From a virus (taxonomy: Duplodnaviria > Caudoviricetes): a DNA stretch of 64,000 nt. The notes below the pieces were generated by a model, which was given only the letters and a program-made list of their open reading frames with translations, searched no databases and had not been told where the DNA came from. The stretch covers positions 3,150 through 67,149 of IMG/VR virus record IMGVR_UViG_3300019288_000050; one strand, written 5' to 3'. A program made the translations under genes and the position numbers. Shown one piece after another: positions 25,411-51,651 of the stretch (within the stretch, counting starts at the first letter, position 1; each line of letters starts with the position of its first letter).

Positions 25411-25420
25411 AAATCCTAAG

Positions 25421-25452: not shown

Positions 25453-25469
25453 TTTTAATACACACAGAT

Positions 25470-30500: not shown

Positions 30501-33500
30501 ACCGACGTGCTGTACATATCGCACGCTTCGCCGCTGCAGCAGGACGCGCCGGCGCTGCCGGCTGTCAGTCCGGACGGCGTCATCACCGACTCCAAAGGGT
30601 GGCAGACAAAGGCGCCGGAGTGGCAGGACGGCCGCTATATCTGGCAGACCACCTATGTGCGCCGTGGCGACGGCTCGGCGTCGTTCTCGGACCCCACGTG
30701 CATACAGGGCGCCGACGGGCGTCCCGCCCGTCGTATATACCTGCGTGGGACGCAGATGAACCATACGGGCGCACCCCAGCTCAAGGTCGACGGGGCGTAT
30801 ATATACAACTCGGCATCGGGCCGCGGTGTGAGGCTTGTCACCCTCGACCGTCAGACGCTGGCAAAGGTAGATGATACCACCTACGACACCTACAACTCCC
30901 CGGCCAACCGCGCCAGCCTCGCAGCCAGGCTCGAATCGCTTGACGATTCGGTGTTCGTGACGCTGACGTCGTGGGACGCGATAGGTATGGACGCGGCCCT
31001 CAACGCGGCCCTCAACAGGTTCGGCGGTATGTTCAGCGACGTGTTCGGGGGCGACCGTCGCGCCCTCGCCTTCATCGGCTACAAGGGGCTCGGCCAGGGC
31101 TACGCGCAGTGTGTAATGGACAAGTCCGCCGGAACGGCGGCATCGGCCTATGCCGAGGTGTCGGTCTACGTGGCCGACGGCATGTTCACTACGTCGAAGA
31201 CCGCCGTGGGCATCGACCGCATCACCGAGCAGTACTACCTGTCGACATCGCGCACGCAGCTCCAGGGCGGTTCGTGGAGCGACACGCGGCAGCCGTGGGT
31301 TGCGGGGCGCTTCTACTGGACGCGCACGAAAATCACCTACACCGACGGCTCCGTGGCCTACAAGGGGGAGATATGCGCCACCGGCGAGGCGGGCGCGGAC
31401 GCGCCGAACCTGCTGCAGCGCTTCTCGGCGACGGGCGGTGCTTACGCGTCGGAATGGCATCCGTCGTACCTCGACGGCGACGTGTGGATGCAGACGTCCG
31501 CGGACGGCGGGGCCACATGGAGCGCGCGCATGCCCGTGGGACGCGGCGGCTACAGCGCCAACCTGCTCGAAGGCACGTCGGACGAGTGGCATGAGTTCGC
31601 ACTGGGCATGTACGCTTTCATATACGCGCACATCCCGCTTTCCGACCTCGGGCTGGAAGCCGGCGACATGTTCACCTTTTCGGTGGATTACCGTACGGGT
31701 CCTTCCGGCAAAGGCCTGCGCGTGGGCGTCGAGGCCTACAACAGCGAGGCCGACAGGGTTCTGGTGGCCCGCGGCAACACCGTGCGCGACGGCGAGGGGC
31801 GCGCTTGGTGCTCGGGTACGGTCCCGTCCGGGTATGCCGAGCTGCGTCTGCGCCTTGAAAACGCCGACGCGGCCATCAACACCATGAGCACCGAGGAATA
31901 CCGCGGGCTGAAGCTGGAGAAGGGCAACAACCCGAACCCCGTGTGGACTCCCGCCGCCGGGGAGATGGTCGGCAGGGACGGGCAGTGGCAGAAGTTCCAG
32001 TGGGCCAAGGGCACCGACGCCACAAAAGAGCCGACCGGCGGATGGAGCGACACCCCCGTGTCCGCGCTCCCTGGCGAGTACGTGTGGATGCGCAGCGGCA
32101 CCGTGGTGCCCCCGGCCGCCGAACCCGCGAAGTGGGAGCGTGCGGTGAGACTGACGGGCGACACCGGAGCCGCCGGCGGCGACGTGTACCGCCTCGACCT
32201 GGACAACGAGCGCGCCGCCGTGGCGTGCGACGCCGCAGGCAACGTGACGGGCCCTTACCCGTCGGCCGTGGCTTCCGTCTACAAGGGTTCCGTGAAGCTC
32301 GCCGACGGGGTGGCGTTCAGCGTGGCGGGGCAGACGGGCATATCCGCGTCCGTGTCCGCGTCGGGAGTCCTGTCGCTGTCGGCCATGACGTCCGACACGG
32401 CCGAGGTGGTGTTGCAGGCCGTGGCGGACGGCGTCACGCTCCAGAGCCGCATGAACCTTTACAAGGTGAGGCCCGGCAGCAGCTACACCGAGAACCTCGT
32501 CCTCAAATCCGGCGAGGAGGTGTCGTCCGCGGACTACGGGTTCAGGGTGTACGAAGTCAGCGGGGAGCTCGTGGAGGGCGAGACCTACACGTGGACGATA
32601 TGGGGGACTCCCGGCGCCGGCCGTTGTTTCCGCATATACCCCACGGACTGGAACGGGCGCATAGGCGACCCGGCGCAGCTGTCCGAGGGCGTGTACTCGA
32701 TGACGGCCAAGTGGAAGCGCAACGCCGCAGCCCGCAAGGACGCCTTCATGGTGCTGGCCGCGCCGCACGACGCCACCACGGTGTCCACGATACACAGGAT
32801 AAAGGTCGAACGTGGCGCCAACACGTCGCCCGTGTGGAGCCCCGCGCCGTCGGAGATGACGGGCGAGGACGCCGTGACCTACGACCTCCAGCCGAGCGCG
32901 GGCGTGATAAAGCGCGGCATGACGGGCGAGCCGGACGTGCGGGAGGTCTCGTGCGGCGTCTACAAGAGCGTAGGTGCCTCCCGCAGCCTCACCGGCGAGA
33001 AGACCCTGCGCGTATGGCGCATAGGCGAGGACGCTGCCGAGTCTACCATAGCGCACACGGGCGGGCAGTGCGCCCCGGTGGCCGTGACGGCCAGGACCGG
33101 GCAGGTGGTGTTCTCGCTCTACGACAGCGACACGCTGTTCGACGAAAGCACCCTGCTTGACCGCGAGCGCGTGCCTGTGGTGTCCGACGCCTCCGACCTC
33201 GAAGTCGGCGGCACGAACATGCTGCCCGGGACGAAAGGGTGGGCAGGGTGGATAAAGCACGGCTACGCGCTGGCCGGAGGGACGTACAACGGCCTCGGGG
33301 TGGCGCACCTCGCATACCCCGCAGGCGCCGCCGCAGGCACCGCCTACGACCTTAAGATGACGGGCCTCGTCCTCGAGCCGGACACCGTGTACACGCTTTC
33401 CGTGTGGGCGTACGGCACGGGCAAGTTCATATCCTATGTGTGGCCGGACGTCGGCGGGCGGACGTATTCCGTCAACGGCGTGCCGTCTGAGGCCACAGGC

Positions 33501-37989: not shown

Positions 37990-38481
37990 ATGGAAACTTA
38001 TATCGAAATAATCAAACTCGGCATGGGCGACTACTCGCTTCATCATCTTGTATGGCATCTGACAATAGTGGCGTTCTGCATATTCGTTACAGGGCTGTTT
38101 TCTATCGCTGACACCGCAAGCGGTATTTACACAGCGAAAAAAACTGGAGAGAAGCTACGCTCGCACCGTCTGCGCAAGACCTTTGAGAAAATGGCGGTCT
38201 ACTGGTTCTTTCAGATACTCGTGGGTGTGGTGGGGGTTGTTTTCTCGCTGTTTCCGTGGTACAATCTGCCCTATATGTCAATCATATTCGCGGCGATGAT
38301 ATGTATCGCCGAGGGACGTTCCATGTGGGAGCATAGCCGACGGCGCAAGGACAATGTGGCGAAAGTCCCCGAAGCCGTGCAGGAGCTGATTGACCTTGTG
38401 GGCGGCGAGGAGGAACTAAAGCGCACGCTTATAACCCTCGTTCAGAAACGTCTCGGAGTGGAGGGCGGGACTCAGACGTAA
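37990..38481 (+). CDS. Holin
   Basis: Three hydrophobic segments; IADTASGIYTAKKTGEKLRSHRLRKT pattern. Confidence 0.75.
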   Translation: METYIEIIKLGMGDYSLHHLVWHLTIVAFCIFVTGLFSIADTASGIYTAKKTGEKLRSHRLRKTFEKMAVYWFFQILVGVVGVVFSLFPWYNLPYMSIIFAAMICIAEGRSMWEHSRRRKDNVAKVPEAVQELIDLVGGEEELKRTLITLVQKRLGVEGGTQT

Positions 38482-38542
38482 AAAATAGCCCTCATAAGCA
38501 CTTAGAACCGAAGCCTTGGCGGGATTTTTCGGTTGAGCATGA

Positions 38543-38606
38543 CGCTCTGCGTTACAAGGACTATATGGTGGATAATTCCTATCGTATAAACCTATAACGC
38601 AGAGCG
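38543..38606. repeat. 12-bp inverted repeat / long hairpin
   Basis: CGCTCTGCGTTA (38543-54) and TAACGCAGAGCG (38595-606), 40-nt spacer. Confidence 0.7.
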
Positions 38607-38646
38607 ACGCGCTCTGTTCATTTCCAACCGTTAAACTTCCCGAATA

Positions 38647-38961
38647 ATGCCACGAATCTTAGAATACGCATCATCCGTGATTGACCTTGTTGCCGACGAG
38701 CTTGAAGTCTCCCGTGAACTTATCCTTTCCAAATCCCGCACAGCCGAGGCGGTCGATGCTCGGCATCTCGCCATAAAGCTGCTCCACTCAAAAGACATAT
38801 ATCCGTCACGGATAGCTGCGATATTCAGAATGTCGCCAAGAAGCGTCAGACATGTAATAACAGCCTTTGACGCTCGTGTTCAGGCAAATAAATCATTGGG
38901 ATATAACTTGGCAAAAATCAGGAAACAGCTCGGAGAAAGTTCGGACATAACGCGGAAATAA
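38647..38961 (+). CDS. DnaA/TrpR-like HTH protein
   Basis: VADELEVSRELILSKSRTAEAVDARHLAI...SRIAAIFRMSPRSV resembles the DnaA C-terminal HTH. Confidence 0.65.
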   Translation: MPRILEYASSVIDLVADELEVSRELILSKSRTAEAVDARHLAIKLLHSKDIYPSRIAAIFRMSPRSVRHVITAFDARVQANKSLGYNLAKIRKQLGESSDITRK

Positions 38962-39040
38962 TTCCTTTTGAACCAATACGTTGAGAGGTAATTTTGCATC
39001 ACGGAGCAATGTTTCTCCGCAATGTAAAACTAATCTCAAT

Positions 39041-40000
39041 ATGGGAGAGAATAAGACTTCTATTTTCACTTTTCCTGACGCGGGCGCGGCTGCCACGAAC
39101 AACAGCCTTGCCGCGATGCTTCCCGCCCTGTTGCAGAACCGAGGCATAGACAGCGCCGCCCTCATGGGCATGATGGCCAACGGCAACAACGGCTTCTTCG
39201 GCAACAACGGAGGCTTTCAGGACATCATCGCCCTTATCGTGATTGCCGCAATCTTCGGCAACGGTAATTTCGGCTTCGGCGGCAACGGCAATGGTCGCGG
39301 CGACACCGAGCGCCAGATGCTCATGGACGCTATCCAGCGCAACGGCATCGACATCAGTCAGCTCGCAAGCTCCGTAGGATGCTCAAAAGACCAGATTCTC
39401 GCGGGCATCAACGGTGTGTCAAGCGCAATATGCGGTCTCGGCAATCAGATGGGTCAGAACACCAACCAAATCATCACCACGCTCATGCAGGGCAACAACG
39501 CGCTCGCAAGCCAACTCGCTCAGTGCTGCTGCGAGAACCGCCTTGCAATCTGCCAGCAGACCAACACCCTCACCAACTCCATCAACGGAATCAACACAGG
39601 CGTTGAGCGCGGTTTCTCCGCACTCGGTTATGCGCTCGCCGAACAGAGCTGTCAGAGCCGTCAGAACGCGGACGCCAACACCCGCGCCGTCCTTGCAAAG
39701 CTCGACGCGATGGAAGACAGCCGCAAAGACCGAGAAATCGCGACCCTCACCGCACAGCTCACCGCAGCCAACAGCCGCGCGGAGCGCCAGGCAGAACTTG
39801 CGCCCATCTATCAGCAGTTGAGCGAAATCGCATGTAACCAGCCCCCGGTGAAGAAAATCTGCTGCCCCGAACAGTACGTGCCGGTGAACACAGGCATCAA
39901 CGCCATGTACGGGCTTATCCCAACCGGTTGCGGCAACGTGTTCGCGGGCGCTTTCAATCCGTTCGTAGGTTTCGGCAACGGCACAGGGTCATTCTTTTAA
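39041..40000 (+). CDS. Gly/Asn/Gln-rich coiled-coil protein (spore-coat-like hypothetical)
   Basis: 319 aa; NGNNGFFGNNGG low complexity, hydrophobic IIALIVIAAIF, QCCCENRLA; promoter TAATTTTG 38989-96. Confidence 0.7.
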   Translation: MGENKTSIFTFPDAGAAATNNSLAAMLPALLQNRGIDSAALMGMMANGNNGFFGNNGGFQDIIALIVIAAIFGNGNFGFGGNGNGRGDTERQMLMDAIQRNGIDISQLASSVGCSKDQILAGINGVSSAICGLGNQMGQNTNQIITTLMQGNNALASQLAQCCCENRLAICQQTNTLTNSINGINTGVERGFSALGYALAEQSCQSRQNADANTRAVLAKLDAMEDSRKDREIATLTAQLTAANSRAERQAELAPIYQQLSEIACNQPPVKKICCPEQYVPVNTGINAMYGLIPTGCGNVFAGAFNPFVGFGNGTGSFF

Positions 40001-40018
40001 TTTAGGGAGGGCTGTGAT

Positions 40019-40345
40019 ATGGTAAACATAAATGGCATCCCATGCATCAACTCTACCGGCGTGGCTGTGTCAACGGCCAACGTGACGTACTCGTTCGACA
40101 ATTCGCGCGAGATTCCGTTTGCCGGGCTTGTCCTTGTGAGGTTGCAACAGGCAGTCCCGACGGGGACAACCGCCACCCTCCCGGTATTGTTCGGCAACGC
40201 GCCTCTGACCGGCTTTAACGGAGAGCCTGTGACTGCCGCCAACCTCAGCGGCACGGGCATATACGTGGTCTATTACAACAGCCGCTCGAAATTGCTCCAG
40301 CTGCTGACGGGCATCACGCCCACGGCCACAGCCCCGACAACTTAA
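40019..40345 (+). CDS. Small beta-rich protein
   Basis: 108 aa with alternating hydrophobic strands. Confidence 0.65.
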   Translation: MVNINGIPCINSTGVAVSTANVTYSFDNSREIPFAGLVLVRLQQAVPTGTTATLPVLFGNAPLTGFNGEPVTAANLSGTGIYVVYYNSRSKLLQLLTGITPTATAPTT

Positions 40346-40366
40346 CAATAATCAAAAGTAACAACA

Positions 40367-40915
40367 ATGAGTTTTTCCAACCTTAGGGGTTCTTCCCTTT
40401 TGTACATCCTCAACAAGGAGGGCGTGCCGAGCGTCAATGTCGGCACGGTGATCAACGTGACCGCGCCCTATGGCAAATACGGCAATATGGCCATGGCTTT
40501 CGGGCAGCAACCGGAGCAGGTCGTTGACCTCACAGTGAAAGTCGATGACAAGCAGGGTCAGTTCTTCAAAGTTCCCGCCAATGCAGACGTTTGGGAATAC
40601 GAGAACAACGGCATCAAGACGCAGTATGTTCTCGCCACAAGCAAGGACGCAATAAACGCGGCTGTCAACAACCTGCGCCAACAGGCCGTGGACATCATCA
40701 ATTCGGTCGACCACAACAGACAGGTGGTGGCCGCGTGCGACGAGATGCTGAAACAGCTCAACCCCGAATTTGCCGAGAAACAGCGGCAGGAGCAGGAGAT
40801 AAGCGAGCTGAAACAGCAGCTTGCCACCCAGCAATCGCAGATGGCGGAGCTTATCGCCCTGCTAAAAGGTGGTAAGGAGTCCCCTAAGGAGGAAAGACCC
40901 GCTAAAAACAAGTAA
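40367..40915 (+). CDS. Hypothetical protein with C-terminal coiled coil
   Basis: 182 aa. Confidence 0.65.
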   Translation: MSFSNLRGSSLLYILNKEGVPSVNVGTVINVTAPYGKYGNMAMAFGQQPEQVVDLTVKVDDKQGQFFKVPANADVWEYENNGIKTQYVLATSKDAINAAVNNLRQQAVDIINSVDHNRQVVAACDEMLKQLNPEFAEKQRQEQEISELKQQLATQQSQMAELIALLKGGKESPKEERPAKNK

Positions 40916-40918
40916 ACT

Positions 40919-41251
40919 ATGGGTTACATGATACAGATAGAAGAAGATTCCGCCATGGAGCTGAAAGAGCACGCCAAGAAAGCGTTGAAGCACATGGGCA
41001 AGCTCATGGAGTGCGTCGAAGAACTCTGTGAGGAATCCCAGATGGGCGAGCGCGGCGGCTACGGCAATCGCGGTGGTGGCGGCAGCGGTTACGGAAGCCG
41101 CTACGGCAACCGTGGTGGCTACTCCGGCGGTTCGGACGGTGGCTACGGCAACCGCATGGGTTACCGCGACGAGGAATGGGATGATGAGGATGACGACTTC
41201 GGCGAGCGCAGAGGTCGTAGTTCTCGTACCGGGCGTTACGTGCGCCGATAA
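40919..41251 (+). CDS. Gly/Arg/Tyr-rich low-complexity protein
   Basis: RGGYGNRGGGGSGYGSRYGNRGGYSGG...RRGRSSRTGRYVRR. Confidence 0.7.
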   Translation: MGYMIQIEEDSAMELKEHAKKALKHMGKLMECVEELCEESQMGERGGYGNRGGGGSGYGSRYGNRGGYSGGSDGGYGNRMGYRDEEWDDEDDDFGERRGRSSRTGRYVRR

Positions 41252-41316
41252 TTAACCGTGGGGCAACTTGTCGAAAATATCGATAGGTTGCCCCTTTATT
41301 CCTAAACTGAAAGAAT

Positions 41317-41742
41317 ATGAAAAGAACCCCACTTGATATGTTTGAGATAAACCTGCCCGACGGCATGAGGTCTTACCTGCGCAATTATGGGTACTCATTC
41401 GGGAAAAAGGCTTGCATGGAAGCGGTCAAAAAACTCAAGCGTCTTAATCCTGCTACTGGCAAGATGGAAACTCTTGAAGCTCTAAATAAAGAGCAGGTCG
41501 AAGAAATGCTGACGAAACATGGCATTAAGTTGGAGCATAACGTCGGCTACGATTTCGTCTATGCCGCCAACTACGGAAAGGCTGTGCATTATAAGTCAAG
41601 CATCACTGACGAGAAGCAGCTTGCCCTCTATGTGAAAGACCGTATTGACAACCCTCTAATGCCGGGTGGCAATGAGTTTCGCGAGTGGCTTGTAAGGTGT
41701 GATGCTCTTGGCATTCCTGTTGACTGGGACGAAATCTTATGA
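41317..41742 (+). CDS. Hypothetical protein
   Basis: 141 aa helical. Confidence 0.65.
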   Translation: MKRTPLDMFEINLPDGMRSYLRNYGYSFGKKACMEAVKKLKRLNPATGKMETLEALNKEQVEEMLTKHGIKLEHNVGYDFVYAANYGKAVHYKSSITDEKQLALYVKDRIDNPLMPGGNEFREWLVRCDALGIPVDWDEIL

Positions 41743-42149
41743 TACGCCAAAACATCTACCTTGAACGTGCGCACGGCTGGCGGGTGACTTGTTACTTCGC
41801 CGTGACGCATTATGAGGTGGAGGAAATCATGCAGCGGCTTATCGAGGCTGGCTGTGAGGGCGATAACCTGCAAACCGCCTACGACAACCTTTGCTCGGAC
41901 AGTCTCAATACGGGGCTGTGCTATTCGGGTAACGGCGAAAGCGTGTTGGTGGTGAGTTGCGCCACGTCGCCCTCTCAGCTACTCAATAGTATTTTCCACG
42001 AAAGCCATCATCTTAGCTCTATGATAGCCAAAGCGCTTGGCTGGGACTTGATGGGCGAGGAAGTGTGCTATCTGTCGGGCGAGATAGGACAACAGATGCA
42101 CCCCGTCGTGAGCCACTATCTGTGTGGGCATTGCCGAAGCAACGTGTAA
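41739..42149 (+). CDS. HExxH zincin-like metalloprotein
   Basis: IFHESHHL followed by GEEVCYL. Confidence 0.6.
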   Translation: MIRQNIYLERAHGWRVTCYFAVTHYEVEEIMQRLIEAGCEGDNLQTAYDNLCSDSLNTGLCYSGNGESVLVVSCATSPSQLLNSIFHESHHLSSMIAKALGWDLMGEEVCYLSGEIGQQMHPVVSHYLCGHCRSNV

Positions 42150-42202
42150 AGAAAACTGCAAATTCTTTACACATAAATCAAACATATAAAAATTCTTTAC
42201 AT

Positions 42203-42448
42203 ATGAACTCAAAAATCGAAGCAAGGATAGAGGCGGTGAAGCTCGCCCTTAACGTGGAGGGTGTCACCTCTGAAAACATCATTGAAGTCAGCGAGAAAAT
42301 CGCCTCATTCATTATCGGTAATGCGGAGTTGCCCGACAAAGACCCCTCCGATGACATGCAGAAACGCATGATGGATATGGTGACTGGGGCTTACAACAAT
42401 CTCTCCGCATCAAAAGTATCAACCGAAACACCCTCAGAGAATGGATAA
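42203..42448 (+). CDS. Hypothetical protein
   Basis: Start MNSKIEAR; preceded by TTCTTTACA repeats. Confidence 0.55.
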   Translation: MNSKIEARIEAVKLALNVEGVTSENIIEVSEKIASFIIGNAELPDKDPSDDMQKRMMDMVTGAYNNLSASKVSTETPSENG

Positions 42449-42555
42449 GACTCAAAGAATCGCGACACGTCGCGCCCTGCTTTTCGACATTCCCAAGCAG
42501 AAACCGTTGTTAGACTTTACACCTCTTATGGCACTCGTAACTCTTTTCAAATCTT

Positions 42556-42759
42556 ATGGCATCCGCAAATAGACGCAATCGCCGGGCCAATGGCATGAAA
42601 GGTTCGACCGTCCGTAAGGCTCTGGAGAGCGGAACATCGCTCAACTCGCTCTATGCCCTTATACCTGAAAACCGCCACAAGGCTCTCGACCTATTCCTGC
42701 GGATGTTTGGAAAAAGTCCCGCAGATTTGCATGAGGCGTTGGAGAGGGAACGGTCATAA
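42556..42759 (+). CDS. Hypothetical protein
   Basis: 67 aa. Confidence 0.45.
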   Translation: MASANRRNRRANGMKGSTVRKALESGTSLNSLYALIPENRHKALDLFLRMFGKSPADLHEALERERS

Positions 42760-42831
42760 ACGACAAACGCGCCTGCCCTTTTGGGACAGACGCGCATATC
42801 TGTGTGAGCCGCGAGGAAACTTGCGGCTCTT

Positions 42832-43716
42832 TTATTCAACATTCTCTTTGAGCCATTGCTGAAAATACCACAACTGGCCACAGCCGCCTCCAATGTCATC
42901 CTGCCCTGCGGGGTTGAACACTCGCAGTGAGAAACCTTTGTCAAGCATGAGCCTTTGAAAACCACTTATCAGGTCAAGTTGCCTTTCGATAGAGCTTTTC
43001 ACACTCTCTGACTTCTGACATATTACGGAAAGAGTCACTTCCCACACATCGGGGTTGAATATCTTTGCAAGCCGTTCCGCATCCTCGGGCGTTGAGTTGT
43101 TCGCATGGACGCAGTAGTTGAAGAATGGTCTACGCCCCGTGAATGCCGCCCACATTTCGCCGAGGGATGCGATTTGGCGCAGTGTGCAGGTGTCGGTGGG
43201 TATCAGTTTTGCCCTTGCTTCATTGGTAGATTCATGCACGGAGAATTGGATGCCTACTTGGGGCAATCTCTGACTTAGGGCTATGAAGTCGCTCCAATGC
43301 TGTTCCGTACCAAATGGAGCTGATGTTGACACAAGAAGCTGTGCGTTTGAATATTCATTAGCTAATAAGGCTATAGCTATACGCAGTTCGTCATAGTTAT
43401 CCATTGGCTCTCCCATTGACATGAACATTATCTGGAATTTCTCGATTTCAGATGTGTCACAGTCAATGGTTGATAGAACTGTCCTGACCTGTCTTTGTAT
43501 CTCAAACCATTTCAGATTTCGCACAAAGAACTTGCCCGTTCCGCAGAACTTACAGCCGACCTTGCAGCCGGACTGAACGGAGCAGCATATCACCGTGCGC
43601 TTACGGTATTCGCCATAGCGGTAAAGGACGGTCTCGGCTATCGCCTTAGGCTCGTCGAATTCGAACACGAATTTCTTCACATTGGTGTCCGAACTTTCAA
43701 AAACTTGGTATTTCAT
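42832..43716 (-). CDS. RlmN/Cfr-like radical SAM methyltransferase
   Basis: ICCSVQSGCKVGCKFC (CxxxCxxC), MGEP, FSVH, DIGGGCGQL. Confidence 0.85.
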   Translation of the reverse strand: MKYQVFESSDTNVKKFVFEFDEPKAIAETVLYRYGEYRKRTVICCSVQSGCKVGCKFCGTGKFFVRNLKWFEIQRQVRTVLSTIDCDTSEIEKFQIMFMSMGEPMDNYDELRIAIALLANEYSNAQLLVSTSAPFGTEQHWSDFIALSQRLPQVGIQFSVHESTNEARAKLIPTDTCTLRQIASLGEMWAAFTGRRPFFNYCVHANNSTPEDAERLAKIFNPDVWEVTLSVICQKSESVKSSIERQLDLISGFQRLMLDKGFSLRVFNPAGQDDIGGGCGQLWYFQQWLKENVE

Positions 43717-44060
43717 TTTGTTTTCGGGATTATTTCATCAATAGGCATCATATCCGAGAACGTGTAGAACCTCTCCAAGCCGTATCTTACAGCTATGTCA
43801 TGTTCTGTGCTACACCCTTTGCTTTTAGTCCATTCAGGATGGAAATATGCGGCATCGCACATCAACAGACGCTTTATGTCCTCGCCCATGTAGTAGGCAT
43901 ACGACTCTTTATACGACATTTCGAGTGGGGCAAGAGGTGTGTCAAAAGGGTTGACGGGTTCGTGGCCAAGAGCCTTGATTTTCTCGGCTATTTCTAATGC
44001 CTTGCCTGTCTGTGTCATTAAGTCTTTGCCACTTATTGGGATGCTAATATATATTTTCAT
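43713..44060 (-). CDS. DUF4406 / nucleoside deoxyribosyltransferase-like protein
   Basis: KIYISIPISG, LLMCDAAYFHPEWTKSKGCSTE. Confidence 0.75.
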   Translation of the reverse strand: MKIYISIPISGKDLMTQTGKALEIAEKIKALGHEPVNPFDTPLAPLEMSYKESYAYYMGEDIKRLLMCDAAYFHPEWTKSKGCSTEHDIAVRYGLERFYTFSDMMPIDEIIPKTK

Positions 44061-44235
44061 TACTTGTTTTGTTTGATTCGTTTACTCCATACATTGTAGC
44101 AGAAATGGTTTATGGAGCAGGTCACTACACAGAATATCGTGTAACCATAATCCTTGTTAAGGAAGCTCCCCAATGCCGCCCCTATTGAAGCGGACATCCA
44201 TGCGAGGCTCCAGTATTTCATGAATAGGTAGAATT

Positions 44236-44472
44236 TCATTCCTCAATTGCTTCGAGTGTTATACGGACTTTCTCCACAAGGCAATAGCGTTGGAGCAGGA
44301 AGCGTAGGAATCCCTCAAAGTCTTTTGTTTGCTCAGCCGTGACTTCGCTTAGAGCGTTCCGCATTAAGTCTGCTATCATTTTTCGCTTCGGGATAGTCTT
44401 TAAGCTGATCGCAGGGTTTATTTCCTCCGCATACTCGCGGGCTGTGTCGGTGATTTGTTCTTCGGTCAGCAT
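44236..44472 (-). CDS. Hypothetical protein
   Basis: 78 aa in the leftward operon. Confidence 0.5.
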   Translation of the reverse strand: MLTEEQITDTAREYAEEINPAISLKTIPKRKMIADLMRNALSEVTAEQTKDFEGFLRFLLQRYCLVEKVRITLEAIEE

Positions 44473-44629
44473 GGCTCGTCGGTTATGCTCCCGTCGGAAA
44501 TATCTATGACTTCTTCCGGCGGTATGTCTATTATTTCTCTCGGTTCTTCAGGCGCCGCGTAGACGCTGTCGATAAAATCCCAAAAATCTTCAATTTGCAT
44601 TTTTTTGTTTGAAATTCCGGTGTTTTACG

Positions 44630-45208
44630 TTATTTCGGGGATGGGATTTCCATCCAGTATTCTATTTCAGACTTTTCCGCGATTCCGTCACTGTAGACCC
44701 TGTGCCACACACCGCATACGTCGTTCCATACGGCCGGTTCCATCTGAGGGTATGCGAGGACCACCTGTCCGTTTTTCGGTACGGCAATGGCTGTCTCATG
44801 CCAAAATTCCGCCATGGAGCGGACGGCCACGGACGGAGCCGAATCAAGCCCTTGTTCTTTGGCGTACATTTTCATGATTTTGGACGCCATGCCTAAGCGC
44901 TCCATGATGCCGCACAGCATGCCGTAGCAGTCGGATATGAATTTGGCTCTGCCGGGATGGCTCTCACGCAGTGTTTTGCTACCCCATGCCCATACAGGAT
45001 AATATGGTACGGCATCTTTTCCGGCATACTTGATATGTGTGTCGATTCCATAGGTGCCGCCGAAACATTTTGCGGTGTTGTGCATGTCGAATTTGCCCGC
45101 CGCGAAATTCGCGCAGTCCTCCAGGCAGTGTGCGGTGTATACGAGCTGTTCTTCTGTGAGTTCGACGACCCATTTGGCCTGTCTCTGTGGTTTGTTAATA
45201 TCTTGCAT
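44630..45208 (-). CDS. Hypothetical protein with DUF551-like C-terminus
   Basis: WHETAIAVPKNGQVVLA...YWMEIP. Confidence 0.5.
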   Translation of the reverse strand: MQDINKPQRQAKWVVELTEEQLVYTAHCLEDCANFAAGKFDMHNTAKCFGGTYGIDTHIKYAGKDAVPYYPVWAWGSKTLRESHPGRAKFISDCYGMLCGIMERLGMASKIMKMYAKEQGLDSAPSVAVRSMAEFWHETAIAVPKNGQVVLAYPQMEPAVWNDVCGVWHRVYSDGIAEKSEIEYWMEIPSPK

Positions 45209-45379
45209 ATCCTGAATAATGTGACGGGTCCACTAAAATTGTCTGCCGGCCTTTGCCGTAGTTTTGCATGAATCTCACCGATAGCCTCATGGCATTGGCC
45301 ATCATGCGTTCCTCGCGGCCGGTGAAGCTCCATCCGAGCGGCCCGCGCCGTGGTTTTTCCTGTGATGAATTTTGGGTTG

Positions 45380-46102
45380 TCATTGCTGTTTTCTGTAGGT
45401 GTCTCCTTTGAATGCTATTTTGTGGAACATTTCATTGAACCGGTCGGCGGTGCGGTCCTTGTATTTGTTGCGTATGTCTTTGCCGACAAGGTTGGTGGTT
45501 ATGAAAGTGAAAAGCTGGTGGTTGTATCGGTAGTCGATAAGGTCCACGACGGGCGTGTTGATGTTAAGGTAGTCGTGCACTTCCGCCGGCTCCGTGCCGA
45601 GGTCGTCTATGGCAAGCATGGGGCGTGACTTTATCTCGTTGAACCTTTTGAGGTCTTTGGAGTACATCGCCAGTTCTTTCGCCCTGAAAATCTCCATGGA
45701 GGCTTTGAACGGCCTGTTTTCTCCGTTGAGGAAAGAAAAATGCTTTCGGTCTTCCAGATAGTTGACGACGCGTTGGAACGCATAAAGCAGGGTCGTTTTG
45801 CCGTTGCCGCAGCTTCCCGAACATATTATTCCGAACATGGGAGTGGCCTGCGTGATATATACGGCGAGGCTGACAAGGCAGCTTTCGGTGTTGGCGTCAA
45901 GTATGAACCGGCGTTGGCGCCGCTCGACCTCGAATCTATATGCTGCCGCGAGCATGTCGAGCGCATCCTGCACCGGCATGTCGAACCTAAAACGCCCCTT
46001 CGTAGTCGTCCGGGGTGTGATTTCCGACATCAGTTCCCCGACGCGCCGAGTATTTATCTTCAGTCTGTGTTTGGGTGTTTCTGTTGTCATAATTGCCTTC
46101 AA
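45380..46102 (-). CDS. DnaC/IstB-like AAA+ helicase loader
   Basis: GSCGNGKTT, LAIDDLG, ITTNL, DRFNEM. Confidence 0.85.
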   Translation of the reverse strand: MKAIMTTETPKHRLKINTRRVGELMSEITPRTTTKGRFRFDMPVQDALDMLAAAYRFEVERRQRRFILDANTESCLVSLAVYITQATPMFGIICSGSCGNGKTTLLYAFQRVVNYLEDRKHFSFLNGENRPFKASMEIFRAKELAMYSKDLKRFNEIKSRPMLAIDDLGTEPAEVHDYLNINTPVVDLIDYRYNHQLFTFITTNLVGKDIRNKYKDRTADRFNEMFHKIAFKGDTYRKQQ

Positions 46103-46697
46103 GTATTTTTATGAAGTTGGCTTTCTTGAATATCCAGTCGAAACCGACCTTGACCCATTCCCTTGCGAGAAAGTCGGATGCAACCACTTTATGTACTACG
46201 GTCTCCACGGTCTCTCTGTCATATTCTTTGAAGATAGAGCGTAAAGCGTTTTTGCGTGCGTCGGTCAACTTTATCAGTCGCGGAATCCCGGTGCTGCTGA
46301 TTACATCGTTGAACCATTCACGGAAACGTTCAAATCCGTCTTGCGGCTGCGTTGTTCTTTTTGTAGCTTTTGTTGGTTGGCTTTTGGTTGGCTTTTGGTT
46401 GCTTATTGGTTGGTGAGTATTATTAACACGCTGAAAATCAAATGTGATATTGGTTGACTTTTGGTTGCTTGCTGGTTGGATGCTGGTTGCCAGCCCGTTT
46501 TTTTGCATTTTGCCGAGCATAGTGCGCAACCTTTGCCGGGAGATACCGAAACGCATCTCTATATCGGCGGCGGTGAATGTCGCGACTCCGCGATGGTCGG
46601 TTCTTGAAAGTAAAAACCATAACAGGCAACCATACTCTTTGTTTCGCCACAACTCGTCGCCGAGCGCCGAGCGCGGAAGCCGGATGAAGTCGCTCAT
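45987..46697 (-). CDS. Replication initiator (lambda O-like organisation)
   Basis: N-terminal winged HTH, central QP repeats, C-terminal FDWIFKKANFIKILEGNY; adjacent to the loader gene. Confidence 0.8.
   Translation of the reverse strand: MSDFIRLPRSALGDELWRNKEYGCLLWFLLSRTDHRGVATFTAADIEMRFGISRQRLRTMLGKMQKNGLATSIQPASNQKSTNITFDFQRVNNTHQPISNQKPTKSQPTKATKRTTQPQDGFERFREWFNDVISSTGIPRLIKLTDARKNALRSIFKEYDRETVETVVHKVVASDFLAREWVKVGFDWIFKKANFIKILEGNYDNRNTQTQTEDKYSARRGTDVGNHTPDDYEGAF
46373..46491. repeat. Iteron-like TGGTTG repeats within the initiator gene (candidate origin)
   Basis: About 8 copies at 11-12 nt spacing in two groups separated by an AT-rich gap. Confidence 0.65.
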
Positions 46698-47188
46698 GGC
46701 TTCTCGTTGAGCATGTCGGCGCGTTCCTGCGCCCATATCAGTTTGTATTCTCGGTCGTCGGGGTCGGACGGGGCGTAGGCGACGCGGAGGATGTCTATCC
46801 TGCGGGATATGCCTTTGCGGAACACGGCGAAGTGGGGGACGGGGTCGTCGCGGTGCTCGACATACGCCTTGGACTGTGCGCTGGCTGCAAAATCGGTTTC
46901 AAATGACAGGGCTTCGCCAAGCGCTTTCTGCATGCGCTCCAGCTTCCGACGTGTCCTGCGGATAACGGCCGCTTCCGCCACGGCCACCGCCGTGATGATG
47001 GATAATAATGTGATTGTCATTTTTGATGGTGTTGCGGCGCGCCGCGTCATGGCGCGCCCTGTTCGTCGTATAGTTCGTGCTTTATTTTTTCTGCGAGTTT
47101 CCTCATCAGTTTGGCGCGCCATTTGTGTTTGGGCTTCGGCATCGCTTCGTAAGTTTTGGCCGCGTCGTTGAGATAGGCCACGGCTTTT

Positions 47189-47377
47189 CTAAGGTCGGTC
47201 TTCGTCGGCATGGTCGGATATTGCTTCGTCAAGGCAGTGCAGGCGCCGCGCCATGTCCAGAAGTTCTTTCTTCGCTTCTGCCGTGTCGGCCTGTTCTGCG
47301 AGTTTCATCGGTATGTCCCAGTCATAGTTGCGCGCCAGCCCGGCCTGCCGTATCAGTTCTTTGTCTCTGTCTGTCAT
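47189..47377 (-). CDS. Hypothetical protein
   Basis: 62 aa. Confidence 0.5.
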   Translation of the reverse strand: MTDRDKELIRQAGLARNYDWDIPMKLAEQADTAEAKKELLDMARRLHCLDEAISDHADEDRP

Positions 47378-47548
47378 CCGGTATCTTTAAAAAACCGCCC
47401 GTATCCTCACGGACGGGGCGGCATGGTGCAAATAAAATTAGAGTTACACTGGTATGTTCTCATAGGGGTAGGGGCATCCCGTGCCCCAGCGTCCCTGCGA
47501 CAGAGGATGCGCAGGGTGTTTCGCGCACTCTTGCGCAGGGATTGCAAC

Positions 47549-48043
47549 CTAAATTCCGGTACTGCCATATCCACCTGAGCCTCGGTCTGTTTCAGACAAT
47601 TCGTCGGTCTCAACAAAGGACACTTGTGGTATAGGCATTATAACGAGCTGTGCGACTCTTTCGCCCACGTTATAGGAGTCTGGAATGCTATCTGTCGTTG
47701 ATTTGAATTTGGCAGTGACCTCGCCTCTGTAATGGGCATCGATTACTCCTACGCAGTTTGTAAGAAACAAATCCTTGCGGTAGATTGAAGAACGGGGGAA
47801 TATCAGCCCTACATACCCTTCGGGTATTTCAAAGGACAGTCCGAAGCCATACTCAAATACCTTGTGGGTGTTGCTCCATCCGCTCCATACTGCCGTAAGG
47901 TCAAATCCGGCATCTGTCGGATAAGCCTTGGTCGGTATCACTGCATCAGGACGCAGCTTCTTGACTTTGATTCTTATACTTGTCTTGGGAGCTTCGACAA
48001 TATATGTCGGCTCGTCACCGTATATTGAAACTTCTTCACTCAT
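47549..48043 (-). CDS. dut: dUTPase
   Basis: DAGFDL, PRSS, GVIDAHYRGE, RVAQLV, RGSGGYGSTG. Confidence 0.95.
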   Translation of the reverse strand: MSEEVSIYGDEPTYIVEAPKTSIRIKVKKLRPDAVIPTKAYPTDAGFDLTAVWSGWSNTHKVFEYGFGLSFEIPEGYVGLIFPRSSIYRKDLFLTNCVGVIDAHYRGEVTAKFKSTTDSIPDSYNVGERVAQLVIMPIPQVSFVETDELSETDRGSGGYGSTGI

Positions 48044-48047
48044 ATTG

Positions 48048-48563
48048 TTATCCGGGATTATGTAAAGCCATAAATAGACCTACGCTGCTCACCTCTGCGT
48101 CCATGCTGTCAAAGATGATGGGATTGCCAACTCCTTTGAATGTTGCGATACAACTGTCACTCTGATAAAGAGCCTTGTTGAGTCGTTGTATAAGCTTCAT
48201 GTCGAAGCTAAACTGCGGAAGTGGCACAGTCTGCTTGTTTAAGGCGTCTTGCAGGACTTTTTCTGCATTGGGATATTTCTCAAATGTCGAGAAGTAGAAG
48301 AACGCCTTGTCGTTGCCTTTGCTGCACTCTATGCCGTCTTCCGCAATCATGATGCTGTCGTATTTCAACATATCCTTGTAGAAGTCGGCGTGCAGGAATT
48401 TGCCGTTCAGTGCCCCTATCTCACTCTCGTTTAGCCCGGATATTTCTGAGATACGGTTTCTCACGAGCATGTGGGTGTCAGTTGCGTAGGCATACCCATT
48501 GTTGAAAAAGATGCACTCTGTTTCCCTGCGGAACTCGTTATCCTTTGAGCAAGCCAAGTGCAT
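48048..48563 (-). CDS. DNA polymerase III beta-clamp-like protein
   Basis: CSKD..R, YAYATDTHML, KYPNAEKV. Confidence 0.55.
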   Translation of the reverse strand: MHLACSKDNEFRRETECIFFNNGYAYATDTHMLVRNRISEISGLNESEIGALNGKFLHADFYKDMLKYDSIMIAEDGIECSKGNDKAFFYFSTFEKYPNAEKVLQDALNKQTVPLPQFSFDMKLIQRLNKALYQSDSCIATFKGVGNPIIFDSMDAEVSSVGLFMALHNPG

Positions 48564-48607
48564 CTGGACTTTTTGTCAAAGTTGTTTTTAGTTTCGTTTG
48601 CCATATC

Positions 48608-49588
48608 TTACTCCTTTATTTCCTCATATTCAACTTCGTCCTCGTCAAAGCGGTTGGAACTTGCAGAGGGTTGCTTCTGTTCGGCAATCCAGTTCTGCTC
48701 TGCTTTATCCTCGTAATCGAAAAGCGATTCAAGAACCCGTAACTTGTCCTCGCTGATACCGTCTTTGGGTATCGCCTTGAAAGCACGGTGAACGAGTGTC
48801 TTTCTTGCCATTTCCGTGTAGTCAGAAACCCACGGCGACTGCTTGGGCTTACCGTCCTTGCCTATACCTGTTGACGGAGAACGTTCTTTGACCGCATCTA
48901 TCTCAGCTTTATTCATGAAGTCAAACATCTCAGTGCCGTCCGTAAGTATGGCGAAGTAATATGCTCCGAGCAATGTGCTTTCAGAACGTTCCGCCCAACA
49001 GTCGGGTGTATGCACAAGCTCTTCCTTTGAGCCGTGGGAAATTTTGAAATCATCGCCCTTGTACACGCAATGCGCCTCAATCTTCTTTACAAGCCCTGTA
49101 TTGACAAGCATACTGATTTCTCCCATATAGGATTGGAAAAGCACGACTGTCGGCACTTTCTTAATAGTGAAAGGCACAAGATACGCCTGTTTCAGTATTG
49201 GATTGAGAGTAGTTCCGGCGAGCGCGATATTCTTTATCGCATTGACAAGCGAGAGAGGATTTTGTGTCGCTACCGTGATAAGGTAGGGGTTCGCCATCAT
49301 CGCCTGTGCCGCGAAGTCAATCTCTTTTGCCATGATGCGGTCTGCCTCGTTTGGGTCTTTGAATGCCTTGCGGAACGATTCAAAGGGTTTGGCGAAAGCG
49401 TTGGCGATTCCATGGAGCGGTGCAAGTGCGGGGTCGCTCTTTATTTTGCTGATTGTAGCCGAGCAAAGTTGTGGTGTGAAAGCCTCCTTGACTTTCGCTA
49501 CCGCCGTGGTCTGTGCCTCGGCTTTCGGCTGTTCCGTCTGCGGAGCGGTCTGCTCCAGCGGGAGCTGATTGGTCTGTTCTGTTGACAT
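48608..49588 (-). CDS. RecT-like recombinase
   Basis: TLNPILKQAYLVPF, SYMGEI, PWVSDYTEMARKT. Confidence 0.88.
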   Translation of the reverse strand: MSTEQTNQLPLEQTAPQTEQPKAEAQTTAVAKVKEAFTPQLCSATISKIKSDPALAPLHGIANAFAKPFESFRKAFKDPNEADRIMAKEIDFAAQAMMANPYLITVATQNPLSLVNAIKNIALAGTTLNPILKQAYLVPFTIKKVPTVVLFQSYMGEISMLVNTGLVKKIEAHCVYKGDDFKISHGSKEELVHTPDCWAERSESTLLGAYYFAILTDGTEMFDFMNKAEIDAVKERSPSTGIGKDGKPKQSPWVSDYTEMARKTLVHRAFKAIPKDGISEDKLRVLESLFDYEDKAEQNWIAEQKQPSASSNRFDEDEVEYEEIKE

Positions 49589-49607
49589 CGTTATATAAGT
49601 TTATTCG

Positions 49608-50039
49608 TTAATCGTCTTCGTTTTTGGAAATCTCAACCTTGACATCGGCTCTCCAGCTCTTTTCAAAGCAACCTGTAACGCAATCTATAACTGCGTCCGC
49701 AAATCTATCGCCTTTACTGCGCATCAATGACCGCTTGACGGCATCTCTGATTTGGTCTTTGTTTTCAGTTAAAGCCTCCTTTATGGCTGCTTGCACCGAG
49801 TCTGTCAAGAGTTTATTGAAATAGTAGTTGAAAAGAGAGGTCGTATTATAATCGGTCCTACTTGTTGAGACCTTACCGTTGTCCTTATCCACTTTTGCGG
49901 CAAGGAAACCCTCTACTGCGTTGTTTACAAGCTCCTGTGTACCGCCGAGAGCTTCCACTATAAGAGCCTTGATGTGGGTATCAACTATCGGCTTGATTAA
50001 CTCAGGCGAAATACCAAGGTTGATTAAGTCTTGTGCCAT
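49608..50039 (-). CDS. Hypothetical protein
   Basis: 143 aa. Confidence 0.55.
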   Translation of the reverse strand: MAQDLINLGISPELIKPIVDTHIKALIVEALGGTQELVNNAVEGFLAAKVDKDNGKVSTSRTDYNTTSLFNYYFNKLLTDSVQAAIKEALTENKDQIRDAVKRSLMRSKGDRFADAVIDCVTGCFEKSWRADVKVEISKNEDD

Positions 50040-51557: not shown

Positions 51558-51580
51558 GTCGTTGATGTTTGATTGATTTG

Positions 51581-51651
51581 TTGCCACACAAGGGTTTGAA
51601 CCTTGGATTTCAGAATCAAAGTCTGACGTGTTTCCACTACACCATGTGGCA
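51581..51651 (-). tRNA. tRNA-Gln(UUG)
   Basis: Acceptor TGCCACA/TGTGGCA, anticodon arm TCAGA-CTTTGAT-TCTGA, T arm CAAGG-TTCAAAC-CCTTG. Confidence 0.9.

Follow-up and report, generated by a model that had tools for sequence, protein, structure and literature searches.

Two enzymes stand closest to the gene described here. RlmN (E. coli YfgB; TIGR00048; PDB 3RFA, 5HR7 and 6FZ6) is the methyl synthase that produces m2A at position 2503 of 23S rRNA and at position 37 of tRNA, and Cfr (S. aureus; NF000424/TIGR04432; PDB 9P0P) is the resistance methyl synthase that produces m8A2503. To our knowledge, no other class A radical SAM methylase has been characterised, and RlmN and Cfr share one RNA architecture as their target. 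The domain layout of Cfr and its contacts with the target nucleotide have been described, with a cryo-EM complex (bioRxiv 10.64898/2026.02.27.707579), and its residue Q329 was reported to be important for C8-specific methylation (bioRxiv 10.1101/2025.09.18.677109). The other described systems of relevance are the NAD+ reconstitution (NARP) operons of phages. About 1.1% of phage genomes carry NARP2 (bioRxiv 10.1101/2024.02.11.579819), and NARP operons take in further enzymes, one of them an ADPR-1''-phosphate phosphatase countering the aRES defence (bioRxiv 10.1101/2024.02.11.579819; 10.64898/2026.01.28.702374). A radical SAM partner is not mentioned in the NARP1/2 or NARP3 papers, and no paper was found that joins NadV, phage and radical SAM.

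The locus studied here lies in a window of 64,000 nucleotides (the whole stretch of DNA that was analysed) from a temperate gut phage, the gene being carried on a prophage. Judged from its sequence, the open reading frame at 42832–43716 is intact and encodes a class A radical SAM methyl synthase, of predicted activity, that is neither RlmN nor Cfr. The features of the locus are as follows.

42767..42795, minus strand: terminator-like hairpin of 12 pairs (8 G-C) with a T-rich tail, directly past the stop codon of the radical SAM gene (consensus scan, pattern match only)
42832..43716, minus strand: short RlmN-like gene for a predicted class A radical SAM methyl synthase of 294 aa (open reading frame, profile scores, AF2, Foldseek)
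42835..42870, minus strand: family-specific C-terminal helix, residues 283–294 (AF2 helix H283–292; W/Q/W pattern conserved in the family alignment)
42871..42885, minus strand: GCGQL with C279, counterpart of the methyl-carrier cysteine (RlmN C355, Cfr C338; translation; Cys in 53/53 viral members)
43405..43416, minus strand: MGEP, residues 101–104, common to RlmN and Cfr (translation; G102 invariant, M101 and P104 nearly so)
43543..43566, minus strand: CxxxCxxC [4Fe-4S] motif with C51, C55 and C58 (translation; invariant in the family alignment)
43585..43587, minus strand: codon of C44, counterpart of the resolving cysteine (E. coli RlmN C118, Cfr C105; translation; Cys in 52/52 aligned viral members)
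43597..43716, minus strand: beta-sheet extension, residues 1–40, ahead of the radical SAM core, the HhH2 domain of RlmN and Cfr being absent (alignment starts at TIGR00048 position 75/355; AF2 strands)
43713..44060, minus strand: upstream gene, DUF4406 / nucleoside 2-deoxyribosyltransferase-like, 115 aa (PF14359 2.2e-10, phrog_355 5.2e-22)
51580-51651, minus strand: tRNA-Gln(UUG) with A37, anticodon loop C-U-UUG-A-U

An earlier note on this DNA had described a phage-borne RlmN/Cfr-like radical SAM enzyme of 294 aa lacking most of the N-terminal domain, and both parts of that description held. Translation gave the two cysteine contexts ICCSVQ (residues 43–48) and GCGQL (278–282), the CxxxCxxC motif (CKVGCKFC, 51–58) and MGEP (101–104). 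C44 stands exactly 7 residues ahead of the first cluster cysteine, with the same spacing as C118 in E. coli RlmN, and C279 sits inside the family signature NPAGQDxIGGGCGQLW; in the alignment, the RlmN/Cfr sequence beyond CGQL is unlike the C-terminal helix of the viral family. The TIGR00048 match begins at model position 75. The N-terminus is genuinely short and does not reflect a misplaced start codon, because the open reading frame cannot be extended upstream, its start ATG shares letters with the stop codon of the preceding gene (ATGA) and the close homologues have their N-terminus in the identical place in the alignment. Among 84 viral loci of the family, the longest open reading frame was mostly 291–333 aa, and no separate N-domain was found in the 67-kb record, where a six-frame profile search with TIGR00048 gave no second match.

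The similarity to RlmN was evaluated by profile and by fold. The TIGR00048 match had an E value of 5.4e-30 and a score of 104.5 bits over model positions 75–342 of 355 (103.6 bits in the six-frame search), and the curated cut-off of 290 bits was not reached; likewise, the Cfr models NF000424, TIGR04432 and NF011024 gave 69–77 bits against curated cut-offs of 468–550, which were not reached. The sequence matches in the PDB were RlmN 6fz6 (1.8e-17) and Cfr 9p0p (1.5e-13), and by these comparisons the homology to RlmN/Cfr is far above chance level. The AF2 model (pLDDT 92.3; strands E2–7, E13–21 and E24–33) found its closest PDB folds in RlmN and Cfr, with TM values of 0.64–0.74 and Foldseek E values of 1e-19 to 7e-13, whereas other radical SAM enzymes followed at 3.6e-6 or weaker. 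As modelled, the viral protein keeps the RlmN/Cfr-type fold of beta-extension, partial TIM barrel and C-terminal tail. Net charge and pI showed no informative difference between the viral core and the RlmN/Cfr cores, and the PADLOC defence models gave no match for the radical SAM gene or its neighbours.

A phylogeny with RlmN and Cfr, which the earlier note had proposed, placed the window protein outside RlmN+Cfr. The tree set comprised 53 viral and 25 short metagenomic proteins, 22 canonical RlmN-like proteins and Cfr, and was analysed by a quick IQ-TREE search with no bootstrap. The viral and the short metagenomic proteins were all split from the canonical RlmN-like proteins and Cfr with 99% SH-aLRT and a branch of about 1.15; the window protein fell inside a 52-row clade of the short viral family, and Cfr and Cfr(D) nested on the canonical RlmN-like side, far from it. 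On this alignment-based tree, the short viral RlmN-like proteins form a clade of their own, almost exclusively viral, outside RlmN+Cfr. The gene was present on at least 295 viral contigs, whereas among one genome each for about 185,000 species only 3 matches exceeded 45% identity, all on contigs of 2.7–13 kb, the others being at or below 33%. The homologues of the window protein were 47–91% identical to it, and the family hallmarks, all found in the window protein, are a length of about 290–300 aa, the missing N-domain, NPAGQDxIGGGCGQLW and the invariant residues Y32, Y34, R40, Q95, M97, L128, Q157 and F267. No description of such a family was found in the literature on phage RlmN/Cfr-like proteins, on NadV with radical SAM or on adenine2503 with phage. 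Fusions within the family join the protein to a NUDIX domain (P0131), a histidine phosphatase (P0273) or a probable class I methyltransferase-like domain (P0274), each known from one to a few clusters of genes called in metagenomes. The NUDIX domain of P0131 was considered as an ADP-ribose pyrophosphatase, which was unsupported, its likeness to the Nudix half of the NMNAT-Nudix neighbour being limited to the Nudix box and its NCBIfam matches being generic (MutT/NudI-like). An HD/dGTPase-like fusion (P0200) was dropped as family evidence, as it lies on the canonical side of the tree.

The residues by which Cfr contacts its target were mapped to the viral family by alignment to the published contacts and cross-checked with HMMER alignments. 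The counterpart of Cfr R327, which contacts the ribose 4'-O and is Arg in 22/22 RlmN-like proteins, was F267 in 53/53 viral members. S/T187 and S/T103, the phosphate and ribose hydroxyl contacts, were replaced by L128 and V42, and R184/R185, the contacts to helix H90 or the anticodon stem, by A125/Q126. N288 corresponded to T228, a counterpart that differed between two alignments, and Q329 to P269. The replacement residues at these target-binding positions were nearly all invariant within the viral family, and E28 and R195 were retained as in RlmN/Cfr. Among the Cfr-specific residues, Y97 alone was matched (by Y34); W101, S103, S151, S328, Q329 and F330 were found as R40, V42, Q95, N268, P269 and A270. 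On this mapping, the pocket for the target nucleotide and the adjoining helix is rebuilt in the viral family with conserved residues of its own.

The genomic context of the family was surveyed for recurrent partners. NadV, NMNAT-Nudix or Prs was found within 5 kb of the family gene in 11 of the 53 dereplicated loci, with NadV no more than two genes away in 9/53, and on the family tree the NAD-gene adjacency amounted to 10 changes. A second sample gave NAD genes in 9/27 further clusters, usually in the order NMNAT-Nudix, radical SAM gene, NadV, so that overall about 25% of the dereplicated family loci adjoin NAD-reconstitution genes, against the roughly 1% of phages in which NARP2 occurs. As a negative control, neither NadV nor NatV was found near RlmN homologues at any of 80 bacterial-genome loci (nearly all of these homologues at most 33% identical). 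Isochorismatase (twice), NADAR and PARP were further neighbours of the family gene, and no conserved partner gene was found, the neighbours varying between loci. The NAD link is not obligate, because the family gene was present at no more than 6 of the 80 phage NadV loci, and it could reflect shared residence in accessory-gene regions.

Since the viral family is shortened, its pocket rebuilt and its genes often found in NAD-rebuilding operons, the target is probably other than the ribosome or tRNA site implied by the RlmN name. From the gene neighbourhoods and fusion partners of the family, a NAD-related nucleotide was taken as the likeliest substrate class, and the best reading, offered tentatively, is that the short viral enzyme C-methylates a free nucleotide of NAD+/ADP-ribose metabolism. 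As the retained residues suggest, a methyl group would be built on an sp2 ring carbon via a methyl-cysteine intermediate, with two SAM consumed per turnover and host flavodoxin or ferredoxin as the presumed reductant. The attack would fall on the adenine ring, or possibly on the electron-poor pyridine ring, of the nucleotide, and the substrate would be neither 23S A2503 nor tRNA A37 bound as RlmN and Cfr bind them. The methylated product may serve host takeover or counter-defence, for example as a nucleotide unusable by, or inhibiting, defence NADases or signal receptors. It is possible, although on the unlikely side, that the family is the first class A radical SAM methyl synthase to act on a small molecule (NAD+, NMN, ADP-ribose or an adenine nucleotide) and so an unrecognised accessory step of NAD+ reconstitution or counter-defence. 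Against the NAD-nucleotide reading, about 75% of the family loci, the window included, have no NAD gene nearby: NadV, NMNAT-Nudix and Prs-like genes are absent from the window and the whole record, and NAPRTase-family and NUDIX genes from this phage altogether, where the enzyme would have to act alone on a host-supplied substrate. Radical SAM methyl synthases are also slow and costly, and better suited to rare macromolecular sites than to millimolar metabolite pools, and every characterised class A enzyme that we know of works on RNA.

Methylation of adenine C2 (or C8) in host RNA, at A37 of an anticodon loop, at 23S A2503 or in another hairpin recognised without HhH2, which would tune translation or guard tRNAs from host anticodon nucleases, is a strong rival to the NAD-nucleotide reading, even if somewhat unlikely when taken by itself. 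Every characterised relative is a methyl synthase that acts on RNA, and the viral protein retains the core fold and beta-extension as well as both cysteines, E28 and R195; moreover, Y34 corresponds to Cfr Y97, the 5'-O contact of the target ribose, and R40 to the RlmN Arg at the position of Cfr W101. At some loci the family gene is part of a tRNA array (L001, L133, L137 and L155, where in L155 three tRNA-Gln and two tRNA-Arg come next), RtcB stands beside the family gene at 4 loci, and Rnl1/PNK adjoin it at some; these loci also speak against the NAD-nucleotide reading. However, a tRNA was found within 5 kb of the family gene in 7/52 dereplicated loci, which would not be clearly above chance for large phages with one tRNA cluster, and for that reason tRNA adjacency was not counted as support. 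On the tree, the RtcB link comes down to 1 change, within a single lineage, and RtcB and metallophosphoesterase were rejected as general partners of the family. Further against host RNA, the N-domain anchoring the L-shaped RNA is absent, the Arg and hydroxyl contacts to ribose, 3' phosphate and helix have given way to hydrophobic residues, invariantly at the ribose and phosphate contacts, and hosts already hold a canonical RlmN (annotated in Parabacteroides, and in Bacteroides rings in the control search).

That the gene encodes no methylating enzyme at all, being a decaying passenger or a catalyst of other radical chemistry, is improbable. One of the two cysteines is indeed lost in the distant short-family branches P0158, P0170, P0153 and P0177, but both cysteines and the cluster motif are present in the clade of the window protein and in all 53 viral members, together with dozens of other invariant positions; the reading frame is intact, its length is conserved and in some phages the gene has been invaded by inteins.

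Quite improbable, too, is C-methylation of adenine for restriction evasion, whether in the DNA of the phage or in a precursor deoxynucleotide, and no finding points that way. The gene is the last of a leftward early operon for replication and recombination (RecT, dUTPase, initiator, DnaC-like loader), its translation is coupled to that of the nucleoside 2-deoxyribosyltransferase-like gene, and the subgroup fused to the probable class I methyltransferase-like domain provides a lead only. Yet the DUF4406 pairing does not recur at other family loci, except that a single contig has a homologue at a distance of 3 kb. Moreover, no conserved DNA-modification partner was found in 80 dereplicated loci, and C-methylating a whole genome with a radical enzyme that spends two SAM each time would be very costly. 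We know of no case of C-methyladenine in DNA.

The earlier note had suggested a new substrate for the short phage enzyme, such as phage tRNAs, Y RNAs or DNA. A substrate differing from that of RlmN/Cfr is likely, but phage tRNAs and Y RNAs did not survive as the general target. The phage does encode a tRNA-Gln(UUG) with A37, as the note had stated, and a TROVE/Ro60 gene, and tRNA-Gln was reportedly identified by Benitez-Paez and co-workers in 2012 as an m2A37 tRNA in E. coli. Nevertheless, the records of three relatives, 96%, 92% and 100% complete, carry the family gene with no tRNA gene and no Ro60/TROVE gene, so that neither the phage tRNA-Gln nor Y RNAs can be the general substrate of the family; in the window phage itself, the tRNA-Gln lies 8 kb off, elsewhere in the operon, and host RlmN could serve it. 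Methylation of these phage RNAs is thus very improbable. As for the multidrug resistance that the note had raised, a Cfr-type determinant making m8A2503 is extremely improbable: beyond the weak Cfr-model similarity and the Tyr at the Y97 position, it fails on score, on clade, on the missing N-domain for H91/H92 binding and on 6/7 of the Cfr-specific residues.

The significance of these results lies in a third, large and almost purely viral clade that is predicted to keep class A chemistry without the RNA-docking parts, which would mean either a novel substrate chemistry of radical SAM enzymes or a novel phage rewriting of host RNA. For annotation, family genes labelled 'RlmN' or '23S rRNA methyltransferase' could be taken for phage-borne Cfr-like resistance genes, a role for which none of the present comparisons gave support. 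Cultured phages of Salmonella, Stenotrophomonas, Vibrio and Aeromonas carry the gene, which opens the substrate question to direct testing.

Compared with known systems, about a quarter of the family loci lie in or adjoin NARP1/NARP2 operons, but the window has no NAD genes and most NadV loci have no family gene. The cultured-phage relatives, namely Salmonella phage Arash gp133, Stenotrophomonas phages ANB28 and BUCTxx99, Xanthomonas phage JGB6, Aeromonas phage Ahp1 and Vibrio phages such as 496E54-1, encode proteins of equal length with the same motifs, 47–51% identical over the full length and in the same clade (L001, L002 and L003). Their carriers are large lytic phages of 106–218 kb, unlike the temperate window phage; in ANB28 the family gene sits in a tRNA array, and in the Vibrio phage beside Prs-like and NAPRT-family genes. 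The record labels of these relatives are hypothetical (including Arash gp133), 'RlmN', 'radical SAM, partial' and even 'prohibitin'. With Cfr, the viral protein shares the mechanism class, the core fold and the Tyr at the Y97 position, and it differs by the missing N-domain, by its place outside the Cfr clade and by six of seven Cfr-specific active-site residues, including Q329. RlmN is the best match in both sequence and fold, having in common the radical SAM core, the beta-extension, CxxxCxxC, MGEP, the spacing of the resolving cysteine and the CGQL cysteine. In contrast to RlmN, the viral protein lacks about 70 N-terminal residues (the HhH2 domain), belongs to a separate clade, scores 104 against 290 bits and has F, L, V, T and A where RlmN has the invariant R (Cfr R327 position), T187, T103, N288 and R184; its family has a C-terminal helix and the NPAGQDxIGGGCGQLW signature of its own, and the gene is a viral one as opposed to a housekeeping gene.

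The radical SAM gene of the window was found to carry every motif claimed for it in the earlier note (CxxxCxxC, ICCSVQ, GCGQL and MGEP), as follows:

42832–43716, minus strand: short RlmN-like radical SAM ORF of 294 aa (ORF call)
residues 43–48 of its product: ICCSVQ (this and the next three by sub-range translation)
residues 51–58: CKVGCKFC cluster motif
residues 101–104: MGEP
residues 278–282: GCGQL

C44 precedes the first cluster Cys by seven residues, as does the resolving Cys C118 of E. coli RlmN, and C279 is the counterpart of the methyl-carrier Cys. Pfam gave Radical_SAM only (30.6 bits), whereas the NCBIfam RlmN model TIGR00048 matched with E = 5.4e-30 and 104.5 bits, below its cut-off of 290, over positions 75–342 of 355; the Cfr models gave 69–77 bits against cut-offs of 468–550. 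The PDB sequence matches were RlmN 6fz6 (1.8e-17), Cfr 9p0p (1.5e-13) and E. coli RlmN (1.6e-9). An AlphaFold2 model from a 29-sequence alignment (pLDDT 92.3) resembled RlmN/Cfr structures (TM 0.64–0.74, E 1e-19 to 7e-13), with other radical SAM enzymes trailing far behind. The lack of an N-terminal domain, also pointed out earlier, proved genuine, because the start ATG overlaps the upstream stop (ATGA), homologues start at the same place and no second RlmN-like match was found elsewhere in the whole 67-kb record. The translated gene thus appears to encode an intact methyl synthase of class A, the RlmN/Cfr mechanism class, without the RNA-docking domain. Class A chemistry would be kept, a Cys-bound methylene adding by a radical route to an electron-poor ring carbon, although the target carbon (C2, C8 or another) cannot be called from sequence.

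The relationship to RlmN and Cfr was evaluated with a 109-row maximum-likelihood tree (quick IQ-TREE search, LG+C20+F+G4, SH-aLRT only, no bootstrap, root not inferred), which returned warnings on several long branches. A branch of ~1.15 with 99% support separated all 53 dereplicated viral and 25 short metagenomic proteins from a canonical side of 22 RlmN-like proteins, Cfr, Cfr(D) and a few long-branched short forms, with Cfr placed among the canonical RlmN-like proteins. The window protein groups with viral sequences in a starred clade of 12 rows. The proposed RlmN/Cfr-type enzyme class stood, but not the idea of a truncated RlmN or Cfr, since this branch makes the short viral family a third clade of class A enzymes.

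The family is large, and its members are much alike in length. The best 120 matches in a 90%-clustered protein collection were 288–317 aa long and 69–91% identical to the window protein, and 67 clusters of 50%-identity representatives fell below E 1e-30, short proteins running down to ~30% identity before canonical RlmN proteins of 340–380 aa turn up. Copies 47–51% identical occur in the cultured phages Salmonella phage Arash, Xanthomonas JGB6, Stenotrophomonas ANB28 and BUCTxx99 and Aeromonas Ahp1, as well as in a set of ~137-kb Vibrio phages and a 462-kb uncultured phage, and IMG/VR adds at least 295 contigs, 4 kb to 424 kb long, with a gene for a relative. The family is essentially viral, since ~185,000 bacterial and archaeal genomes, one per species, gave just three matches above 45% identity, all on MAG contigs of 2.7–13 kb; the remainder lay at or below 33%, mostly in the 25–33% range usual for canonical RlmN. 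Database labels vary from hypothetical to 'RlmN', and searches on RlmN/Cfr-like, NadV and NARP (phage NAD+ reconstitution pathway) literature found no paper describing the family. Three homologues (P0271, P0272 and P0278, 642–648 aa) are interrupted after about residue 60–90, just past the cluster motif, by an intein that includes a LAGLIDADG endonuclease.

The record is a 67,149-bp IMG/VR provirus, estimated as 96% complete, of which the window covers 64 kb. The radical SAM gene is the final gene of a leftward operon, from which early expression may be inferred, that also holds small ORFs and the following:

48608–49588: RecT
47549–48043: dUTPase
45987–46736: replication initiator
45380–46102: DnaC-like loader
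43713–44060: DUF4406/nucleoside 2-deoxyribosyltransferase-like gene
42795–42767: terminator-like hairpin downstream of the radical SAM gene (pattern)

The phage has no NAPRTase-family or NUDIX gene, and PADLOC defence models matched neither the radical SAM gene nor its neighbours. The nearest cellular matches of the protein (a Prevotellaceae MAG and a rumen Kiritimatiellae MAG) and lemur-gut virus DNA nearby fit a gut or rumen phage: two segments of window ~39437–42285 are 75% DNA-identical to Dulem virus 40 (PP511379), the sole megablast match of window 38000–50000 in the phage collection. Within the structural region, window 27546–35195 (plus strand) is a compositional island, with a 2549-aa ORF at G+C 0.64–0.68 against 0.41–0.53 across most of the window and a 1573-aa ORF on the opposite strand.

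The substrate contacts of Cfr were mapped onto the viral family by alignment, with the STS- and VNL-strand segments cross-checked in HMMER alignments. A cryo-EM preprint on Cfr crosslinked to an 87-nt rRNA reports that the HhH2 N-domain anchors the H90–H92 junction; that S182, R184 and R185 grip one H90 strand, the counterpart of the anticodon stem; that S103, S151, S153 and S187 grip the phosphate 3' of the target; and that N288 contacts the target's phosphate, R327 the ribose 4'-O and Y97 the 5'-O; in the RlmN–tRNA complex, the tRNA's acceptor stem and D-arm superpose on H91 and H92 (bioRxiv 10.64898/2026.02.27.707579). E28, C44, the cluster Cys, C279, R195 and Y34 are retained in 52–53 of 53 viral members, and the following positions are replaced:

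Cfr positions and their counterparts in the short viral family
R327 (Arg in 22/22 RlmN-like proteins and Cfr): F267, 53/53
S/T187: L128, 53/53
S/T103: V42, 52/52
R184 (R/K in 21/22 RlmN-like): A125, 44/53
R185: A/Q
N288: T228 (one MAFFT run and HMMER; S230 in the other run)
N/S151: Q95
V/S153: M97
A/T210: Q157, 53/53
Q329 (S/T in RlmN): P269, 53/53

The new residues are themselves conserved, and the basic tail RKTRG of RlmN reads FNPAGQ in the window protein. By alignment, the family has lost the polar and basic groups that grip the ribose, 3' phosphate and adjoining helix, and keeps Y34 on the 5' side. Such a pattern fits a conserved enzyme whose substrate is likewise conserved yet probably differs from that of RlmN or Cfr, and would be compatible with a target lacking a 3' polynucleotide continuation.

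Fusion to nucleotide phosphohydrolase-type domains was found within the family: P0131 (468 aa) adds a C-terminal NUDIX domain and P0273 (547 aa) an N-terminal histidine-phosphatase domain. P0274–P0277 and P0279 carry a C-terminal extension of ~250 aa with a weak PRK04148 match, placed among class I SAM methyltransferases by language-model features, as a lead only. An HD/dGTPase-like fusion, P0200, was set aside, as it falls on the canonical side of the tree.

Dereplication of 84 loci with called ORFs at 85% identity of the radical SAM protein left 53, across which no neighbour was constant. Among the commonest were NadV/Nampt (NAPRTase + NAMPT_N; 9 loci, always within two genes), NMNAT-Nudix (7) and Prs-like genes (6), and 11/53 loci had at least one of the three within 5 kb. 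On the tree the NAD-gene label takes 10 changes to explain, which means that the link is not synteny inherited within one lineage. An independent second sample of 58 viral loci contained 19 with NadV and NatV (Prs in place of NatV in one), equal to 9/27 new 85% clusters, usually in the order NMNAT-Nudix, radical SAM gene, NadV, these members being 46–51% identical to the window protein; the sets together give ~20/80 NAD-linked clusters (25%). NadV or NatV was found near RlmN homologues at none of 80 bacterial-genome loci. NARP2 has been reported in ~1.1% of phage genomes (bioRxiv 10.1101/2024.02.11.579819), and NARP1 in ~4.3%. The NAD link is real but not obligate, because just 6/80 phage NadV loci have the radical SAM gene. 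Other neighbours included metallophosphoesterases (8 loci), RtcB (4 loci, one lineage), Rnl1, PNK3P and RNR. Single members of A3, the alignment of immediate neighbours, were a phage protein with WGR, PARP_reg and PARP catalytic domains, two nicotinamidase-like isochorismatase proteins and one NADAR protein. NAPRT-family genes are paired with a Prs-like gene without NMNAT-Nudix at loci L003, L117 and L147, resembling NARP1, and with NMNAT-Nudix at L148, L153, L158 and L162, resembling NARP2; the radical SAM gene may accompany both pathway types.

A free NAD-related nucleotide is tentatively ranked first as substrate, since three independent lines of evidence (pocket, neighbours and fusions) favour nucleotides over structured RNA, and NARP operons are already known to recruit accessory enzymes. 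Methylation of host RNA is a serious, if somewhat less likely, alternative: all relatives characterised so far have RNA as substrate, an enzyme that is slow and spends two SAM is better suited to rare sites, and three quarters of the loci, this one included, are without NAD genes. Loss of function is improbable for a protein with the catalytic set described, and DNA modification, also raised earlier, marginally more so.

The suggested methylation of phage tRNAs or Y RNAs is very unlikely. The phage does encode tRNA-Lys(UUU), tRNA-Met(CAU) and the claimed tRNA-Gln(UUG) with A37, and its Ro60-like gene was confirmed (558-aa ORF, 25206–26882, plus strand; TROVE match at ~25587–26294 in two segments jointly above cut-off). 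However, neither tRNA nor TROVE genes were found in the records of five relatives searched whole, three of them 96%, 92% and 100% complete (55, 54 and 68 kb; the 68-kb record has terminal repeats). As these relatives carry the gene, the family's function is independent of phage-encoded RNAs; a local role for tRNA-Gln is unnecessary, though possible. A tRNA lies within 5 kb at 7/52 loci. At L155 (4968–7061), the radical SAM gene is followed within 0.5–1.1 kb by tRNA-Gln(UUG), tRNA-Gln(CUG), tRNA-Gln(UUG), tRNA-Arg(GCG), tRNA-Cys and tRNA-Arg(UCG); in E. coli, the tRNAs with m2A37 include some for Gln and Arg. An Rfam tRNA match at 53307–53376 (minus strand; 34.4 bits, gathering score 29), not called by ARAGORN, may be a degenerate or atypical tRNA-like gene.

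The multidrug-resistance role attached to Cfr is highly unlikely, as score, clade, architecture and contact residues all speak against it: at the Cfr-specific active-site residues of Fruci et al., the alignment matches the family to Cfr at Y34 only and to RlmN at R40 only, with its own residues elsewhere.

Were the NAD-related nucleotide reading true, the enzyme would be categorically new. RlmN and Cfr are its nearest known enzymes and share its type of mechanism, but the window protein falls outside both by score, domain architecture, clade and substrate-contact residues.
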